A DNA stretch of 24,628 bases, from positions 1 through 24,628 of the forward strand of contig JAEOTB010000082.1 of the NCBI GenBank assembly GCA_016840065.1, written 5' to 3'. Source of the DNA: Candidatus Hermodarchaeota archaeon. Lineage in GTDB: Archaea; Asgardarchaeota; Hermodarchaeia; Hermodarchaeales; Hermodarchaeaceae. Under the pieces are notes generated by a model. It saw nothing but the letters and a program-made list of their open reading frames with translations, did no database searches and was not told where the DNA came from. Positions 3,318-15,714 of this stretch are shown here, piece by piece; position 1 is the first letter of the stretch; each line of letters begins with the position of its first letter. Made by a program: the position numbers and the translations under genes.

Positions 3318-6287
3318 TTACATCAGTCGGAATGTTAAATCGTTGTTTATCCCCCAGTCACCAATGACTTCTGTTTGTCTCGGATATAGGATGACAACTT
3401 GTTGAGCAGCCCAAGCTTTCATGAAGAGATTTAGGTTAAGAACAGTGGTCTGATAAGGATTAATGAAATACAGAGTCGCGTAGACAACTGTCTCACCCCA
3501 ATCCGAAAACCCATCACCATTATCATCCCTTCCTTCGAAGCGAACACCTTCAGCAAAACTGTATTGGTCGAAGCCATCTGCTGGGGCGAACGTATCTACA
3601 AGGATTGGTATAGTCCCATAGACTAGTCCAGCCCACCAGTTCAATGCTCCTACGCCTTTGGCTGATGCCATCCACCAAAGCCTGTCCATCCAATTACTGT
3701 CTCCTTGATTCGACCGTTCCACGCCGGAATTCCCGACATCAATAAGAACACCAATCTCTGGTTCAGGAAGTTCGGGATAGAAGTAGATATCTGTTCTCGA
3801 TAGAAAATCCCAGAAGTAAAGGAAGGTTGCGCTCAACATGTGAGCTCGGACAGAGAATCGCATATCAAGAGCTAGTAGAACTTTGTCTTCGGGAGTATAG
3901 TATTCGTATCTCAAGCTTCCAGGAACATAGGTAATATGAAATGATGCGGATAACTCACGAGTATAAATACCACTACCGATTCCACTACAACAATCGTGTG
4001 TAGCAGAACCATAAGCCCTGCTGATTTCAGACTTTGCTTCCTCGATTGCTAGCGCTGTCGAAATGTAGCCTTTCAGATTGTCATCAACAGGCTCATTTTC
4101 TAGTCCGTTATTGTTGGCGTCTTTCGCTAAGCCACTGTGAATATAGAAGCCTGGATTATCACCATGCATAACAAATGCACCTGTGTATGTCTTACCGTTA
4201 GTTTCTCCAGCGTAACCTCCACAGTCCAGATACAACCCTCCGCCAGTCAAGTAAGAATACCCTAGGATATCAGGTGATTCTGGTAAACTATAGATGGTTG
4301 AAAATCCGTAGCTACTGAAGCCAGCACCATCGCTCGTACCGAATTTCACTAGTGATTGCTCACTGCTCATCGGAAGCTGATCCATATTTAAGAAATGTTT
4401 CAGCCCATTAGCTCCGATTTCTGCGCCACCACAGGTAATATCAGTTGGCCAGTAATCCTTGTTACTGACATAATAGTGACTAACACCTGATACAGAGGCC
4501 CAAACCCACCTGTTGTTTCGACAGGTATAGGAGAGAGCCGAGAACCAGCCAGCCCAGTCAGGCGTAACGGGATCCGCTTCCCATATGATTGTCTCGGGCA
4601 CTGGAGCTGTCCATTGATGATAGAACTCGGTGTTTTCGTAGCGACCTTTTGAAACTATCATGAAGTCACGTGATGTGAAAATTGGGTGTTCTGAAGCAGG
4701 TTGAAACTTGGCGAGAAACTTCTGTCCGGGTGTTAGTTCGACATAAGTCTCATCGTTTTTCACGAGATCTGATGCAATATTCGTATAATCCCAGTTCTTT
4801 GCTGTAATGAGAGGTGCTTCTCGGACTATTAACGGGCTTGGAATGCTTGTATCAAAACCGATGAAATCTAGTTTGTGGTTAGCGGTGAACCGAATCCGTA
4901 TTTCTACTGGATCACTGGCTATCCCTAAGTGTTGCTTGAGATCTACAACCTCCATCGCCCAGAGCGAGCGAGTGGGTAGAACCTCCACCTCACGCCAAGT
5001 ACCCCACTTATCTAGGACATCAACGTGGAGAGACAGCTTCATATCCCTGTCAGCGTGCATCAATAACTTGAGGTTAGTCAAAACTTCAGATTCTGGAAGC
5101 CGTAGGTGAAGATAATCACCATCGTACCCTTCAAACCAATCATCATCAATGGTTGAAAGAGCTGCGAATACATCATTGCCTTCACTGTCAACCATGTAAG
5201 AGGGAGGAGTCGGATCACGGTAAGTAAGAAGCTGTCCGTCTTGGGTGACCGCGACATTGACATCAGGTGCGTGGTCCACCGTCTGTAGTTTGAGACTATC
5301 GATGTAGTCGTGTTCTGATTGATGTTCACCGATAACAAAGTAGTGAAGCCCGTCTCGCATCACTGGTGTATGCTGGAGAAAATAATAGTCAATCACATCA
5401 TTGGTTCCATTCACTGGAGACCCAATTAGTATGTTGTTTTCCAGTTCATAGACGGTGCCATTCCAAATGTAGAGGTGTGGACATCCTCCTGGTGGTGGAT
5501 CTGGTGGTGGATCTGGCGGTGGATCGGGTTCCTCAATGAATATATTAATAGTCTGAAAAACAGAGACATCAGTGTAGGATGTTGATTTTACTTGGAACTC
5601 GTACCAATAGTCTCCAGGGAGACTAGTCGTGTCCCATGTAGCGTGGAAGCGCTGAGTTCCACCGCTGAAAGTCATATGTTGCCATGGGAACCACGTAGGT
5701 CCCCCTTGAGGACGAAACCGATATTCACAGTATTCGATGCCTCTTTGTCCTAGTGAAGCGAATGCAGTTTCCATAGTGAGTGCATGCACTTGCACTAATC
5801 CCTTTTCGAGGTATTGACCATCGTATGGGTGTGAAATCTCGAGGCGAACGAGGTACTCAACTGGAATTGGAACTACTTCACCATGAGTGTTCACGATGAT
5901 GGCTCCTTCGGGCGGTTGTTCAACAAGATCAATGAACTCGTTCATTGTACTGATGTAAGTGACTTGTCCACCAATACCGATTTCACGTGCAACCCCGCCT
6001 ATGCAGTACTTGACAGGGACGTCATTAGCATCATTGATGGCGCTTTGAACGCCAGATATTACATCATCACGACTACCAACAAAGCGGTCAAGTGCACGGT
6101 CTATGTCAATGACAAAGACCGGAATCTCATGGTCTTCAACAGTTACCTGCTTTTCTGCATAAGATCGCGATACTGAGACCTTTGCAGAAGCACTAGTATT
6201 GGGTGTTACTAAGATACTACTCGTTATGAAGGCGAATATAAGAAAAACAGATAACACTATTAGTGTTTTCCTTCGATTTGAAACCAT
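3318..6287 (-). CDS. Large secreted multidomain protein of unknown function (~990 aa)
   Basis: Signal peptide (RRK plus hydrophobic stretch), Ig-like segment (LEISHPYDG...WDTTSLPGDYWYEFQVK), (DPPP)3 linker and GGCPHLYIWNG motif. ATG at 6287 follows a GGTGA RBS; the ORF track starts at GTG 6296. Confidence 0.85.
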   Translation of the reverse strand: MVSNRRKTLIVLSVFLIFAFITSSILVTPNTSASAKVSVSRSYAEKQVTVEDHEIPVFVIDIDRALDRFVGSRDDVISGVQSAINDANDVPVKYCIGGVAREIGIGGQVTYISTMNEFIDLVEQPPEGAIIVNTHGEVVPIPVEYLVRLEISHPYDGQYLEKGLVQVHALTMETAFASLGQRGIEYCEYRFRPQGGPTWFPWQHMTFSGGTQRFHATWDTTSLPGDYWYEFQVKSTSYTDVSVFQTINIFIEEPDPPPDPPPDPPPGGCPHLYIWNGTVYELENNILIGSPVNGTNDVIDYYFLQHTPVMRDGLHYFVIGEHQSEHDYIDSLKLQTVDHAPDVNVAVTQDGQLLTYRDPTPPSYMVDSEGNDVFAALSTIDDDWFEGYDGDYLHLRLPESEVLTNLKLLMHADRDMKLSLHVDVLDKWGTWREVEVLPTRSLWAMEVVDLKQHLGIASDPVEIRIRFTANHKLDFIGFDTSIPSPLIVREAPLITAKNWDYTNIASDLVKNDETYVELTPGQKFLAKFQPASEHPIFTSRDFMIVSKGRYENTEFYHQWTAPVPETIIWEADPVTPDWAGWFSALSYTCRNNRWVWASVSGVSHYYVSNKDYWPTDITCGGAEIGANGLKHFLNMDQLPMSSEQSLVKFGTSDGAGFSSYGFSTIYSLPESPDILGYSYLTGGGLYLDCGGYAGETNGKTYTGAFVMHGDNPGFYIHSGLAKDANNNGLENEPVDDNLKGYISTALAIEEAKSEISRAYGSATHDCCSGIGSGIYTRELSASFHITYVPGSLRYEYYTPEDKVLLALDMRFSVRAHMLSATFLYFWDFLSRTDIYFYPELPEPEIGVLIDVGNSGVERSNQGDSNWMDRLWWMASAKGVGALNWWAGLVYGTIPILVDTFAPADGFDQYSFAEGVRFEGRDDNGDGFSDWGETVVYATLYFINPYQTTVLNLNLFMKAWAAQQVVILYPRQTEVIGDWGINNDLTFRLM
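5490..5525. repeat. 12-bp coding tandem repeat x3 (DPPP linker)
   Basis: TGGTGGTGGATC TGGTGGTGGATC TGGCGGTGGATC. Confidence 0.9.
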
Positions 6288-6330
6288 TTCCTTCACCTAG
6301 CTGGTGACTTCCTGTAAGAATGATGTGCGT

Positions 6331-7851: not shown

Positions 7852-8673
7852 CTAGATAACGCTAGCATAAACGATGTGCTCTTTGTAGGGAACTACATCG
7901 ATGTGCCGCTCATCGGTCTTCAGCTCTTCCATGAATACCGTCATAGCTTGGGCTACATCTTCTGGAAGCATAGCCTTCCGTTCACCCCTTAGTGCTTCAG
8001 GAACATAGCTATCACGGAGCAGGCGCATACCCGACTCACAAAAACTTGTATTATCTCCGAAGTATTCGAAGCCACTCACGGCACCATTGATGATTACTAT
8101 CATGCCGACCTGGTGTTGCCAAGGTTCAAAGTTAGCGACAAAGCGTTCGAAGTCGGCACCAAGGGCTTGATAGATGGCACCAAGGGCCTCCGAACGGGAT
8201 TCCACACCCCACTCTTCCAGATATTGTTCAATAAGTTTCCAAATCTCTTCTTGCTTCTTTTCCTCAAGAACTGCTCGCCGAATAGTTAGGGGGATATCAG
8301 AAAGCGTCCATTCCTTTCCACTACGGCGCCAGCGTTGGTGCTCAATGCAGTATACATTGATTGTTCTCCTACGACCAGAGATTACTTGGCTCTTCTTCAC
8401 GATACGGTCCTGCCTTCCCCCAGCTAGCAACCCCTCACAGGCACGAAGCAACACAGGCTCCTTAGGCTCAAAGAGCAACCCGGTATATTGACCTACATCG
8501 TGGATTTCCACTTTTTCTTGGGCTAGGGCTTGACGGAGGGAGAGGATAGGCTGCTCTTGTGGTGCAGCCTTGTCGAGCAGGCCGATAACCGCGATGTTAC
8601 CCACGAGCTGGGGCTCAGCGAATGTGGTCGATTGGATTAAGCTGAGAATCTCAGCGCCATTGCTTTCAGTCAT
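7852..8673 (-). CDS. ARPP/DUF6569-like protein
   Basis: LSLRQAL...VEIHDVG, PVLL...E..LAGGRQDRIV, INVYCIEHQRW, QEEIW, QVGMIVIING...EYF and LLRDSY match the ARPP-1/DUF6569 pattern as I recall it. Overlaps the upstream gene by 8 nt. Confidence 0.7.
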   Translation of the reverse strand: MTESNGAEILSLIQSTTFAEPQLVGNIAVIGLLDKAAPQEQPILSLRQALAQEKVEIHDVGQYTGLLFEPKEPVLLRACEGLLAGGRQDRIVKKSQVISGRRRTINVYCIEHQRWRRSGKEWTLSDIPLTIRRAVLEEKKQEEIWKLIEQYLEEWGVESRSEALGAIYQALGADFERFVANFEPWQHQVGMIVIINGAVSGFEYFGDNTSFCESGMRLLRDSYVPEALRGERKAMLPEDVAQAMTVFMEELKTDERHIDVVPYKEHIVYASVI

Positions 8674-10111
8674 TTTTTATCACCTCAAGGATGTGCCCAA
8701 GGAACCGTAAGCCCCGCAGCGGAAGGAAGATTTCATTCTCTGCTCCGAGACGGGTGGCGGCTTCAGGTTCCAGTGGATTAATTGTGGGGTTCAATGTCAG
8801 GATGGTGGTCTCCTTCATCTTCTCAGCCACGAGCTTTTCATGACCTCGGTACGGGATGTTTGACTGACCATCCGTAATAAGGATTAGCCATCTGGGTTTG
8901 AGCTTGGCTACTGCTTCTAGACCTCGGGATAAACTGGTGGGGTTGTAAGCCTCGTTTGTCCCAAAGGTTTCAGCAATCCCTTCTACACCTTCACATTTGG
9001 GTACCTCTTCGATGACGTCTCTGATTAGGAAGGTCGGTATACCCTGGGAAACAGCAACAAGCGCTGCCAGCTCCCAGATTACACGTGTGAGCGCGTTGGT
9101 CTTGGTTAGCATCATGCTGCGGCTGGCGTCACAGAGTACAACGCTGTCCTGTGGGAAAGTGATGGGGGTGTGTTCGAGGCAGGTTTGGAAGGGTTTCCTC
9201 AGTGCTTCAGCTAGATCGGGGTGTTGGAGAATTACACTGCCTAACTCAGCAGGGTCGAAGAAAGTCGCTGCCCGCTCCATCCGCTGCAGCCACAGGTTTC
9301 GGTGACTATCCAAGAAGCCACAACGCCGCATTGCATCAGTACGCCTAAGCACCTCATAGTTCGTCATCTTGTCAAAGGCTGCCTCATAGAACGGCAGGGA
9401 TGTGGTATCCAGTACTCCTGAGGCAAACCCCTCCAGGGTTCTAAAGGGAAGCCTGCTCTGCTGGACGTCTTCTATTGTCAAGGATTTAATGATAGCCTTA
9501 AGCTGAATCCTTACAAAGTCATCAAGGAAAGAGCGGGTCTGCTCATCTTCCACCTGCTCGAGGTGCCCTTTACGTTTGAAGAGAAGCCCTGCAGCAAGAT
9601 GGCCTAGATCACCCTTGAACTTGGTGTGGGCACGGTAGCAAACTGCCCTCCATGGCTTCCGGGTTTTAGTAAACCAGAGGGCGACAGTTCGAAGCCCCCG
9701 CTTTTCAGCGATGTGCTTGAGAAATCGCCATACGAAGTTTCGCCCACGCCGGCCTAAGCTAGTACGCTGGAGACCTAGTTCCTTGTGAAAATCGAGGATG
9801 TTCAGCCAGAAAGTTGGCATGTGGTCTGGTCGTGCCTGCTCAAGGAGATTGGTAACATCTTGTCCTTGATCGAAGAGATAGATGGCACAAAGCACCTTGT
9901 GGGAACTAAGCATGACAGGGAGAACCCGCTCAATGTATTCTTGGTATCTTGGGTCACCCTTGTAGCGGCGGTGCACCTCTGCAGCAACACCGACTGTCTG
10001 GTCCTGCGAGAAGTAGTACTGCGGACGAAAGGTGTTAATCGTCACAGTAGTGAGGAAATCGATGGGCACCACGATTTCGGTGCGCTGTTGCAGAGCCTTC
10101 ATTTTGTTCAT
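8666..10111 (-). CDS. Ro60/Rsr-like TROVE + vWA domain protein
   Basis: C-terminal vWA MIDAS (LCDASRSM, PTSL, LITDGQSN). The helical N-terminus has Ro60-like segments: SLGRRGRNFVWRFL (cf. WGRALRKAV), ALWFTKTRKPWRAVCYRAHTK (cf. KY...DLLRLSHxK), LPFRTLEG and MTNYEVLRRTDAMRRCG (cf. MPLTALLRNLGKM). Confidence 0.75.
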   Translation of the reverse strand: MNKMKALQQRTEIVVPIDFLTTVTINTFRPQYYFSQDQTVGVAAEVHRRYKGDPRYQEYIERVLPVMLSSHKVLCAIYLFDQGQDVTNLLEQARPDHMPTFWLNILDFHKELGLQRTSLGRRGRNFVWRFLKHIAEKRGLRTVALWFTKTRKPWRAVCYRAHTKFKGDLGHLAAGLLFKRKGHLEQVEDEQTRSFLDDFVRIQLKAIIKSLTIEDVQQSRLPFRTLEGFASGVLDTTSLPFYEAAFDKMTNYEVLRRTDAMRRCGFLDSHRNLWLQRMERAATFFDPAELGSVILQHPDLAEALRKPFQTCLEHTPITFPQDSVVLCDASRSMMLTKTNALTRVIWELAALVAVSQGIPTFLIRDVIEEVPKCEGVEGIAETFGTNEAYNPTSLSRGLEAVAKLKPRWLILITDGQSNIPYRGHEKLVAEKMKETTILTLNPTINPLEPEAATRLGAENEIFLPLRGLRFLGHILEVIKND

Positions 10112-10245
10112 GGGGATCGCCTACAGGATTAATCGGAGCCAACACACCCATGGGGGCTTGTATACCTAACTAGGTGTGTCTATCCGTTTTCGAAGTTTTC
10201 AATCTTGTACTTGAAATCAATTCGGTGTTTTTTGATCGCCCCATG
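10109..10245 (-). ncRNA. Structured 5' leader or second RNA unit upstream of the TROVE gene
   Basis: Nested inverted repeats: CATGGGG (10109-10115) with CCCCATG (10239-10245); CGGA 10134-10137 with TCCG 10183-10186; AACACACC 10141-10148 with GGTGTGTC 10173-10180; TTTCAA with TTGAAA (10197-10216). No ORF. Confidence 0.4.
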
Positions 10246-10257
10246 TTAATATTCAAA

Positions 10258-10340
10258 GATAGGGTACAGCAGGGGCAAAATGGGAATCCATCCCAATCAT
10301 TGATCAAGGGAACATCGTAATGCCCCTAATTCGACCCTTC
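10258..10340 (-). ncRNA. Candidate Y-RNA-like RNA
   Basis: 5'-AGGGU-CGAAUU-AGGGGCA...UGCCCCU-GCUGU-ACCCU-3'. The 5' and 3' ends pair, with GUCGAA on the 5' strand. Internal hairpin UGGGA-UGGAU-UCCCA. Starts ~25 nt downstream of a TATA box and lies upstream of a TROVE gene. Confidence 0.55.
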
Positions 10341-10351
10341 ACAAGGCAGAA

Positions 10352-10372
10352 AAGAAAACGAGTTTATAAGCT
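10352..10372. promoter_or_regulatory. Bidirectional BRE/TATA promoter
   Basis: AAGAAAACGAG-TTTATAAG on the plus strand and CTTATAAA on the minus strand. Structured elements begin ~25 nt away on both sides (10391 and 10340). Confidence 0.6.
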
Positions 10373-10526: not shown

Positions 10527-10658
10527 CTTTGGGAAATGAAAACTCGCTAATAAAAGAGTTACGCAGGTAAGGGCACAGGGGGGTTTGACCGCGTATCCTA
10601 AAGGGTTGAGATTTTAGTAAAAGCCAAATAATGTTAGATATGTGGTTGATTGATTGTC

Positions 10659-11090
10659 ATGTCGGGTCGGATTGTCCCTTGTGTGGGTGCTGTGATTCTT
10701 GATGACGCTGGAAAAGTGCTTCTAGTCAAACATGTCCCTGAGAAAGGTGGGTTCTGGGCGGGTAAATACATCTGTCCGGGTGGACGGTTAGAGTATGGTG
10801 AATTATTGGAGGCAGGTGTCCGAAGGGAAGTCTTAGAAGAGACAGGACTCGAAATCGATATCCTGCGGTGGTTGCCACCCATGGAACGGATAATATTGAC
10901 GCCCGAAGGCATCATTGAGGATCACGTACTCTATCTAGATGCGGTAGCGCGAGTCAGGAGTGGAACATTCGTCCCCCAATCCGATGTGGGTGAGGGTCGA
11001 TGGGTTGACATTAAGAAACTGCCAGAGCTGTTAGAAGAAATCCACGAAGATACCGCTACCCTACTGCGGCAAGCAGGTATGCTTCCCTAA
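10659..11090 (+). CDS. NUDIX hydrolase
   Basis: Nudix box PGGRLEYGELLEAGVRREVLEETGL. Confidence 0.92.
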   Translation: MSGRIVPCVGAVILDDAGKVLLVKHVPEKGGFWAGKYICPGGRLEYGELLEAGVRREVLEETGLEIDILRWLPPMERIILTPEGIIEDHVLYLDAVARVRSGTFVPQSDVGEGRWVDIKKLPELLEEIHEDTATLLRQAGMLP

Positions 11091-14384: not shown

Positions 14385-15614
14385 TTAATCAGTACCATCC
14401 TTCTCTTGTCTTTCCTCTTTGCGTGGGTTGATGAAAGGAACACAGACAGCAGCTATCAGAGTTAAGAGGGCTAAGAGGAGGAAACCCAATGTCCAGGTAC
14501 CATATACGAGTTGAGTACTGCTAACAATTAGGATACCGAAAGAGCCGAATCCAAACCTGGCAAAGAAGCTGTAGCCAAAGACCGTTCCCCGGTTACGCTC
14601 TGTAGCAAGCTGCGCCACCATAGTGTTGCTAGCTGCTTGAGCTGCAAAGAAGGAGAAGCCGAAAAGCAGTATTGCCGCAATTAACCTCATATCTTCTATA
14701 AGACTCGGTGAGTAAGGTAGGGAGAGCAGAAGCAGGGAAACACTAGAAAGGACGCAAGAATAGATGAGTATTATTTTCCAGCCCATCTGATCCGTGAGGC
14801 GACCACCAACTTCCTGTCCTATAGCCCCCCCAACGTAGATTAGTGTGCCCAGTATACCAGCCAAGACAAGGAGCGTCTCTAGTTCTCGATTCAAGTAAAT
14901 AGGAAGTGCTGTTACCGTTCCTCTGTAGAACATGCCACGGGTGATGAGGGCAACAGACATTAGCCCAAAGACTACCACGGACATGGCACTAAAGAACCCA
15001 CTTCCCATAGAGGAACTAGGTTGAGCTTTTGCCTCCTGCTGAGGTTTTACTGCGTGGGATCGTATACAAATAAACGATACAAATAACCCCGCAGCTGCTA
15101 GAACAGGGAATATCAAGGGCCAGGCAGGTGTACTCAGAATAGCAGCTGAAATGATTGGGGATGCAGCTTGACCAATACTACCACCGATACCATGTCTACC
15201 AAGAGCTTTCCCTCGATTCTTGGTAAAGACATTAGATACCCAGGAGGTTCCCGCTGGATGATAGAGTCCGGCTCCGAAGCTATAGAGGATGAAAAGGAGA
15301 GCGATTGCCATGAGTCCAAGGGGCCAAAGAAAGAATAAGGCAATACCCGATGCTACAGTAAGTGACAATCCGAGAGCTATCACTCTGGTAGGAGCAATCT
15401 TATCAGCTAGAATTCCTGCAGGGATTGCACTAAGGCCGAAGATGAAGTAAGCAGGAGTGTTTAGAAGGAGTACGACGAGCCCTTCCTGACCTGGCGGAAC
15501 CGCTGTTACTTCAAGGAGCTTTGCTGTGATGTATGGAAGGGCAAGCATCAGTAGGTGAACAAGTCCATGGGCTGTTCCAGTGATTAATAATGTCGACGTC
15601 TTGCTACTGACCAT
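14385..15614 (-). CDS. MFS transporter (FSR-like)
   Basis: About 12 TM helices; GILADKIAP, GLYHPAG, RGKALGRHG and GGRLTDQMG. Confidence 0.9.
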   Translation of the reverse strand: MVSSKTSTLLITGTAHGLVHLLMLALPYITAKLLEVTAVPPGQEGLVVLLLNTPAYFIFGLSAIPAGILADKIAPTRVIALGLSLTVASGIALFFLWPLGLMAIALLFILYSFGAGLYHPAGTSWVSNVFTKNRGKALGRHGIGGSIGQAASPIISAAILSTPAWPLIFPVLAAAGLFVSFICIRSHAVKPQQEAKAQPSSSMGSGFFSAMSVVVFGLMSVALITRGMFYRGTVTALPIYLNRELETLLVLAGILGTLIYVGGAIGQEVGGRLTDQMGWKIILIYSCVLSSVSLLLLSLPYSPSLIEDMRLIAAILLFGFSFFAAQAASNTMVAQLATERNRGTVFGYSFFARFGFGSFGILIVSSTQLVYGTWTLGFLLLALLTLIAAVCVPFINPRKEERQEKDGTD

Positions 15615-15714
15615 GACTGTTCTACCACTTTAACTGGGGCAACCAAGATTATTGCTACAAGCCTTAAGCTTTTCACCTAAGCGAAAAGGATGTTGAGTAG
15701 ATTGAGGTGACCTC

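Follow-up and report, generated by a model that had tools for sequence, protein, structure and literature searches.

A short Y-RNA-like gene upstream of a divergent archaeal Ro60 homologue, and the apparent RNA family to which it belongs

Does a short structured element on the minus strand of a Candidatus Hermodarchaeota contig (JAEOTB010000082.1, assembly GCA_016840065.1; the window is the whole stretch of 24,628 nt analysed here) encode a Ro60-bound Y RNA, and what is the gene that follows it? A preliminary description made from the sequence had read it as a Y-RNA-like element beside a TROVE gene, perhaps of a minimal or new class. That reading largely holds: the adjacent gene encodes a Ro60 homologue by predicted fold and by profile, and the element is probably a gene of an archaeal Y RNA family whose product would be bound by Ro60, as supported by the family itself, its structure, the gene linkage and the Ro60 homology; the effector and the specific role of the RNA are far less certain. 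Two protein-coding genes lie downstream:

8666-10111, minus strand: divergent Ro60, 481 aa; helical TROVE-like ring and vWA domain with MIDAS motif
7852-8673, minus strand: ARPP-1 gene (PF20208, E 2.5e-41), overlapping the Ro60 stop; Cys at residue 109

Neither the 481-aa protein nor any of its 16 homologues has a Pfam match (TROVE, PF05731, included), and Ro60 identity was not revealed by PHROGs or by PDB searches with a single sequence or a narrow profile. The missing TROVE match reflects divergence, since a profile widened with distant homologues reaches human (E 6.8e-11) and Xenopus (E 2.7e-10) Ro60, and HHalign connects the family to a canonical Asgard TROVE protein at 95%. The AlphaFold model (pLDDT 83) has whole-length matches only to Ro60/Rsr structures: Foldseek E-values run from 6e-8 (Xenopus Ro60) to 2e-5 over 13 Ro60 chains, with the next hit at 2e-3, and VIA-align Z-scores over 398-434 residues are 19.9, 18.3 and 17.7 for phage, Deinococcus and Xenopus Ro60, respectively, with vWA-only matches at 13 or less. 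Identity to solved Ro60s is only 12-15%. In the profile alignment human H187 and K170 correspond to H162 and K149, both invariant in the close family; H187S in mouse Ro60 abolishes Y3 binding (PMC11277228). The MIDAS residues (DxSxS...T...D; D328, S330, S332, T392 and D414) are invariant in 17 homologues. By modelled fold and profile, the gene product is a full-length Ro60 homologue.

ARPP-1 was called beside the Ro60 gene in 10 loci, was also found by tblastn in L010 and L017, and is present in all close-homologue loci with sufficient downstream DNA. ARPP is a predicted enzyme with conserved Cys and Gln, and its listed contexts omit Ro60 (PMC9503650). Several loci carry a second, longer ARPP-1 gene (L005:8507-9823, with an HTH domain; L006:205-1167), and in L006 the RNA precedes this second gene, not Ro60 directly. 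A Candidatus Hermodarchaeota MAG carries the closest relative of the neighbouring Ro60 gene, at 85% identity and between the same flanking genes, which places the window in an Asgard archaeon. The surroundings of the locus are ordinary chromosomal genes (NUDIX, flavoprotein, ABC transporter, inositol-phosphate synthase). RtcB is on another contig, unlinked to Ro60, so there is no classic RNA-repair operon. Elsewhere in the window are a gene for a 341-aa Ras-family GTPase with a long C-terminal extension (23060-24085, minus strand) and a 992-aa ORF without Pfam match (3318-6296, minus strand) adjoining a prenyltransferase-like toroid gene.

The element itself, hereafter the short copy, comprises the following features, from its promoter-like sequence onwards:

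10363-10370, minus strand: archaeal TATA-like box, putative promoter judged from spacing
10258-10342, minus strand: Y-RNA-like gene of short type, ~85 nt (outer stem, GNCGAA/UGU bulged helix, 8-bp inner stem, apical region); 30.9 bits with a hold-out covariance model; conserved in L010
10330-10338, minus strand: 5′ strand of the predicted Ro60-binding helix, with C10333 as candidate bulged C (motif definition, PMC4201824)
10313-10319, minus strand: conserved UACNA-G box, at the position equivalent to YUAY of YrlA
10281-10295, minus strand: degenerate T-arm-like hairpin (pair probability 0.34), putative T-arm homologue
10261-10268, minus strand: 3′ strand of the bulged helix (UGY and outer-stem strand), from the alignment of copies

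The minus-strand sequence and both stems are as first described, the outer one pairing 10338-10334 with 10265-10261 and the inner one 10327-10321 with 10277-10271, extended to 8 bp by a U.G pair (10328-10321 with 10277-10270). The GNCGAA motif (10335-10330, its C at 10333) is likewise present, with no final G within 0-1 nt, so that the copy does not carry the exact YrlA motif GNCGAAN0-1G. YUAC at 10320-10317 supplies the YUAY that follows the stem in YrlA; this overlaps the UACNA-G box, 12-14 nt after the C, which the preliminary description had overlooked. Upstream of the likely first G (10342 or 10340), at a distance of 28-30 nt, is the TATA-like box (10370-10363), and from this spacing a start at 10342-10340 is plausible. 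A scan for sigma-70 promoters and terminators, which does not cover archaeal promoters, gave nothing relevant. A small ORF overlapping the element (10170-10307) was rejected, as neither its length nor its stop is conserved in L010.

The element folds at -27.5 kcal/mol, with a modest z-score of -2.15 and 4 of 200 shuffles equally good, and the plus strand folds about equally well; by itself, the folding energy is modest evidence. Pairing of C10333 with G10267 (p 0.55) is preferred by RNAfold to the bulged-C register put forward originally (p 0.04). Both registers are compatible with the comparative data, and in every copy the G that follows the C has U or C as a possible partner, which fits a bulged C. 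An Rfam scan of the window and a YrlA search across the whole genome, the latter suggested in the preliminary description, gave no match, and the short copy reaches no Rfam Y RNA family. ARAGORN and Rfam found no tRNA in the window, in agreement with the original remark that clear tRNA-like arms are lacking: there is no cloverleaf with a free acceptor stem, and the permuted tRNA-like domain (T arm, closed acceptor stem, D arm) is absent from the short copy. Of the faint T arm noted there, the hairpin at 10295-10281 stands, at the low pair probability listed above, and its descent from a T arm is conjectural.

Comparison with other archaeal loci encoding this divergent Ro60 yielded 26 RNA copies distributed over 13 loci, each with one to three copies, mostly in tandem. 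A 5′ strand with GNCG is common to the family, extended to GNCGA in 22 of 26 copies, to GNCGAA in 13 and to the full YrlA motif GNCGAAN0-1G in 8, so that the motif as first proposed is only partly conserved; the UACNA-G box follows 12-14 nt past the C, with UAC in 25/26 and YUAY in 17/26 copies. GNCG and the box served to find the copies, and their invariance is therefore partly circular. The 3′ strand consists of UGY followed by the outer-stem partner, and all 26 copies have an inner stem of at least 6 bp (6-10 bp), varying in sequence with compensatory changes. The long stem of Y RNAs, closed by pairing of the two ends and interrupted by a bulge or internal loop, is found in the family. A/T boxes lie 27-31 nt before the 5′ boundary of the first copies in several loci.

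The preliminary description had made its reading depend on conservation of motif and stems upstream of orthologous genes, and these are present at 13 of the 14 orthologous Ro60 genes that have >100 nt of upstream DNA. No copy is found in the 188 nt of upstream DNA of L012, and in L011-L015 the upstream DNA ends too near the gene for a copy search. In L010, a second species of the host's genus, the short copy is conserved, with both stems kept by compensated changes and a divergent apical part. DNA contigs from sequencing runs of the likely source study contributed only a related strain or species. In an unfitted alignment of 16 copies, 8 of 14 paired sites change on both sides, 87.9% of alignment cells are paired (71.9% in shuffles) and covariation scores 0.47 (0.18 or less in slid controls). 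With near-duplicates removed, covariation persists at the pair immediately preceding the C (17/20 paired, 11.8 expected). Since related sequences inflate such tests, a hold-out test is the stronger evidence. A covariance model built from 15 copies, with the host's genus excluded, placed the short copy first in the 2.6-Mb genome (E 2.5e-4), and at E up to 1 the only genome-wide hits were this element and a second intact copy beside it. Across 151 Asgard genomes the model matched only in the two with this Ro60, and it recovered unseen copies in L005, L006, L007, L019 and L028; BLASTN found no further copies elsewhere in the genome.

These results bear on a further alternative, a hairpin arisen by chance or a repeat acting at the DNA level, for instance a transcription-factor site. 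The weak folding z-score and the about equally good fold of the plus strand are what such a sequence might give, but the minus strand shows compensatory changes and G.U pairs, relatives have tRNA-like inserts, and a model blind to the element recovers it genome-wide. This leaves the explanation barely credible, and covariation and the hold-out search effectively refute it. The element is more than chance, as conservation in the second species, covariation and its rank with the hold-out model attest.

The intergenic region of the window contains four elements, three of which were missed in the preliminary description. Besides the short copy, these are:

10570-10625, minus strand: decayed copy, its 5′ motif strand lost by comparison with L010
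10388-10527, minus strand: second intact family member, ~138 nt, with multi-hairpin apex; GNCG then U
10109-10245, minus strand: conserved structured leader with a GNCGA 5′ strand; its closing helix takes in the Ro60 start codon

The second intact copy has its own TATA-like box (10556-10548), scores 20.2 bits with the model here and 28.6 bits in L010, folds with a z-score of -2.66 and is strongly conserved. The ortholog of the decayed copy is intact in the sister species (L010:5460-5532); in the window the remnant lies beside a divergent plus-strand NUDIX gene (10650-11090), at its start. The leader (10245-10109) has neither UACNA-G box nor inner stem and is unmatched by the covariance model. 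It is a possible autoregulatory element or atypical Y-like RNA.

Such a leader raises the alternative that the elements are cis-acting structures in the Ro60-ARPP mRNA and not free RNAs, with Ro60 binding hiding or freeing the ribosome-binding site or start codon. The window leader helix takes in the ATG, and in L003, L007, L008, L017 and L028 no more than ~12 nt separate the end of the last copy from the Ro60 start, the 3′ end of that copy overlapping a Shine-Dalgarno-like sequence. This would leave the separate TATA boxes of tandem copies (window, L017) and the whole tRNA-like domains on some copies without explanation, and some copies lie apart from the gene: the short copy ends ~146 nt before the start codon, a copy in L006 lies 2.1 kb upstream of Ro60 and the one in L019 is parted from Ro60 by a short ORF-sized spacer. 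A purely cis-acting role is therefore improbable, and a leader function can coexist with the Y RNA explanation.

The apical part varies among the family members. Many copies have short hairpins as their sole apical structure. In L019 and the third copy of L005, a T arm, closed acceptor stem and D arm occur in the permuted order of YrlA, matching RF02553 at 42.9 and 34.6 bits, respectively, short of the 69-bit gathering score. The order is normal, with D, anticodon and T arms in succession, in copies from L007, L008 and L028, which reach 43-57 bits as tRNA and are called as Phe, Thr and Ile by ARAGORN; their acceptor stem merges into the Y handle and there is no CCA. The loci L008:2210-2284 and L028:9781-9854 are near-identical yet differ in the grafted anticodon, Thr-GGT vs Ile-GAT. 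Three more copies retain a T loop immediately ahead of the inner stem's 3′ strand, and the T-arm-like hairpin of the short copy occupies the place of the true T arm in the normal-order relatives. Because relatives carry tRNA-like domains or T loops there, the RNA is best read, on this comparison of sequences, as a short member with a worn tRNA-derived top; the 'minimal' class first suggested is not borne out, since the short copy belongs to a tandem family in which other members have clear tRNA-like domains.

The grafted tRNAs invite another reading, in which the RNAs are mainly tRNA decoys or tRNA precursors that serve archaeal viruses in their conflict with host anticodon nucleases, with Ro60 as no more than a stabilising carrier and the short, chromosomal copy as a decaying remnant. 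Near-perfect tRNA folds with intact anticodon loops on the handle speak for it, as do near-identical loci that differ in the anticodon; the contexts are often virus-like (small ORFs, integrase-like gene, helicase, Bathyarchaeia-like TBP, Csf3) and one copy in the window is visibly decayed. Against it, the majority of copies are without a tRNA domain but retain handle and box, and the grafted tRNAs have neither CCA nor a clean acceptor stem. In the short copy the stems are kept by compensated changes as the apex diverges, which argues for selection on the handle. We consider a mainly decoy function unlikely and prefer the Y RNA explanation.

This Ro60 clade occurs in 2 of 400 Asgard genomes searched, many of them incomplete; a few other Asgard genomes have more distant full-length Ro60 relatives, and three have canonical TROVE genes. 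No YrlA or family match was found within ~1.5 kb of the canonical TROVE Ro60 genes (L023:895-2496, L024 and L025), or of the RNA model in the flanks of a distant homologue (L027). Most of the other loci with this Ro60 are virus- or mobile-element-like, with dense small ORFs, an integrase-like gene, helicase, tRNA genes, Csf3 and a Bathyarchaeia-like TBP. IMG/VR gave no relative of this Ro60, so a viral origin of these loci is read from gene content alone. The module has probably spread horizontally, as a mobile unit, and is probably not ancestral to eukaryotic Y RNAs; as it is rare and mobile-looking, we make no claim on the origin of the latter. On the virus-like 56-kb contig of L028, Csf3-like and PAPS-reductase-like genes (type IV CRISPR-like; 15466-16849) lie 4 kb from the Ro60 module, and on the virus-like contig of L007 a TBP gene (2312-2845) ~71% identical to Bathyarchaeia TBPs is directly upstream of the RNA array.

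Two further Asgard loci carry possible RNAs of other types. At L031:3160-3620 (minus strand; contig C80 of genome G109) there are three tRNA-scaffolded RNAs, of which two have the normal order (~61 bits as tRNA) and one is permuted (YrlA, 35 bits). The gene downstream of them encodes a distant Ro60-like protein of 559 aa and is coupled to an ARPP gene. The RNAs apparently have a different shared handle and box, are unmatched by the covariance model and are likely a sister family. At L032:2980-3070 (minus strand; genome G041), a possible paired-end RNA was seen by eye upstream of another Ro60-vWA gene, with no match to the covariance model or Rfam.

The proposed mechanism draws on bacterial, animal and phage systems (PMC4201824, 10.1101/312249, PMC12135203), and multiple co-transcribed Y RNAs upstream of Ro60 are the bacterial and phage arrangement (PMC4201824, PMC12135203). 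A TATA promoter of its own would drive the RNA, either by itself or within a precursor that continues into the Ro60-ARPP operon. Its paired ends would form the bulged helix that, by homology, is gripped on the Ro60 ring's outer face via H162, leaving the variable apical domain, a putative tRNA mimic in relatives and a shrunken remnant here, to be presented to other proteins. The most likely job would be that of bacterial Y RNAs, to gate entry into the Ro60 cavity for RNA that is damaged or misfolded and to link Ro60 with an effector. The best candidate effector may be ARPP-1, as suggested by gene linkage only. A second candidate, by the PNPase analogy, is the host exosome. Archaea use an exosome rather than PNPase, and two RNase PH-family genes in tandem in this genome would fit an exosome core. 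The module would probably spread on archaeal viruses or mobile elements, and from these would have entered the chromosome of this genus. More tentatively, and with somewhat less than even confidence, we suggest that a single Ro60-binding handle, with both strands conserved as in animals and a YrlA-type motif and box, is a modular mount for tRNA mimics of both topologies with changeable anticodon, that the resulting Ro60-RNA-ARPP particle is used when archaeal viruses, and some Asgard hosts, engage in conflicts that turn on tRNA or RNA damage, and that this is the first described archaeal Y RNA family.

In the literature, searched mostly outside subscription papers, Y RNAs were found only for animals, bacteria and phages and none for archaea, and Ro60-like genes have been reported in Asgard viruses and Borgs without an identified RNA (10.1101/2021.07.29.454249, PMC11208441). 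From sequence comparison the family is apparently an undescribed archaeal variant of the Ro60-Y RNA system, outside Rfam YrlA. It would extend Ro60-Y RNA particles to archaea and provide a defined RNA-protein pair, and permuted, normal-order and tRNA-less members on one handle bear on the tRNA origin of Y RNAs. It also shows that Pfam undercounts Ro60 homologues and that some such RNAs are misannotated as tRNA genes, the label that standard tools would give to the tRNA-like domains of L008 and L028.

Among known systems, YrlA and YrlB with Rsr of bacteria and phages (Salmonella, M. smegmatis; PMC4201824; RF02553) share with the archaeal family several same-strand RNAs upstream of Ro60, paired ends, GNCGA on the 5′ strand and a YUAY-type box. 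Some archaeal members have the permuted T-acceptor-D module, with an RF02553 match below cut-off, and the short copy, with its possible T arm, resembles YrlB in role. Unlike YrlA, which conserves the 5′ strand only, the archaeal family also conserves the 3′ helix strand, varies in the last A of GNCGAA and combines permuted and normal-order tRNA modules; it further differs in its archaeal host and TATA promoters, and its Ro60, which Pfam TROVE misses, is paired with ARPP-1 instead of RtcB/RtcA. In Deinococcus radiodurans, Yrn1 and Yrn2 with Rsr and PNPase (RYPER; PMC4201824, 10.1101/312249) likewise retain both strands of the bulged helix and form a polycistronic RNA cluster upstream of Ro60. 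Yrn1 has the D-anticodon-T order of the normal-order members, a weaker precedent (PMC4201824), whereas the archaeal modules score as near-complete tRNAs with 7-nt anticodon loops. Rfam scans of the window and of family members gave no sequence match to the Deinococcus family.

Animal Y RNAs with Ro60 (GGUCCGA helix; PDB 1yvp) have a similar size and the same terminal stem with candidate bulged C, internal loop and upper stem, and H187 and K170 of their Ro60 have archaeal equivalents. Their motif sequence is different, they have neither a tRNA-derived apex nor a UACNA-G box, and the archaeal module is, in contrast, patchy and apparently mobile. The Ro60 of Thermus phage phiLo (PMC12135203; PDB 9L5Y, 9KOP) belongs to a bacterial virus, is 12-13% identical and is described without ARPP or archaea in PMC12135203. 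It is nevertheless the best structural match (Z 19.9), and this virus-borne Ro60 is likewise preceded by two CGAA-containing RNAs, Yrl1 and Yrl2, whose binding has been shown for phiLo (PMC12135203).
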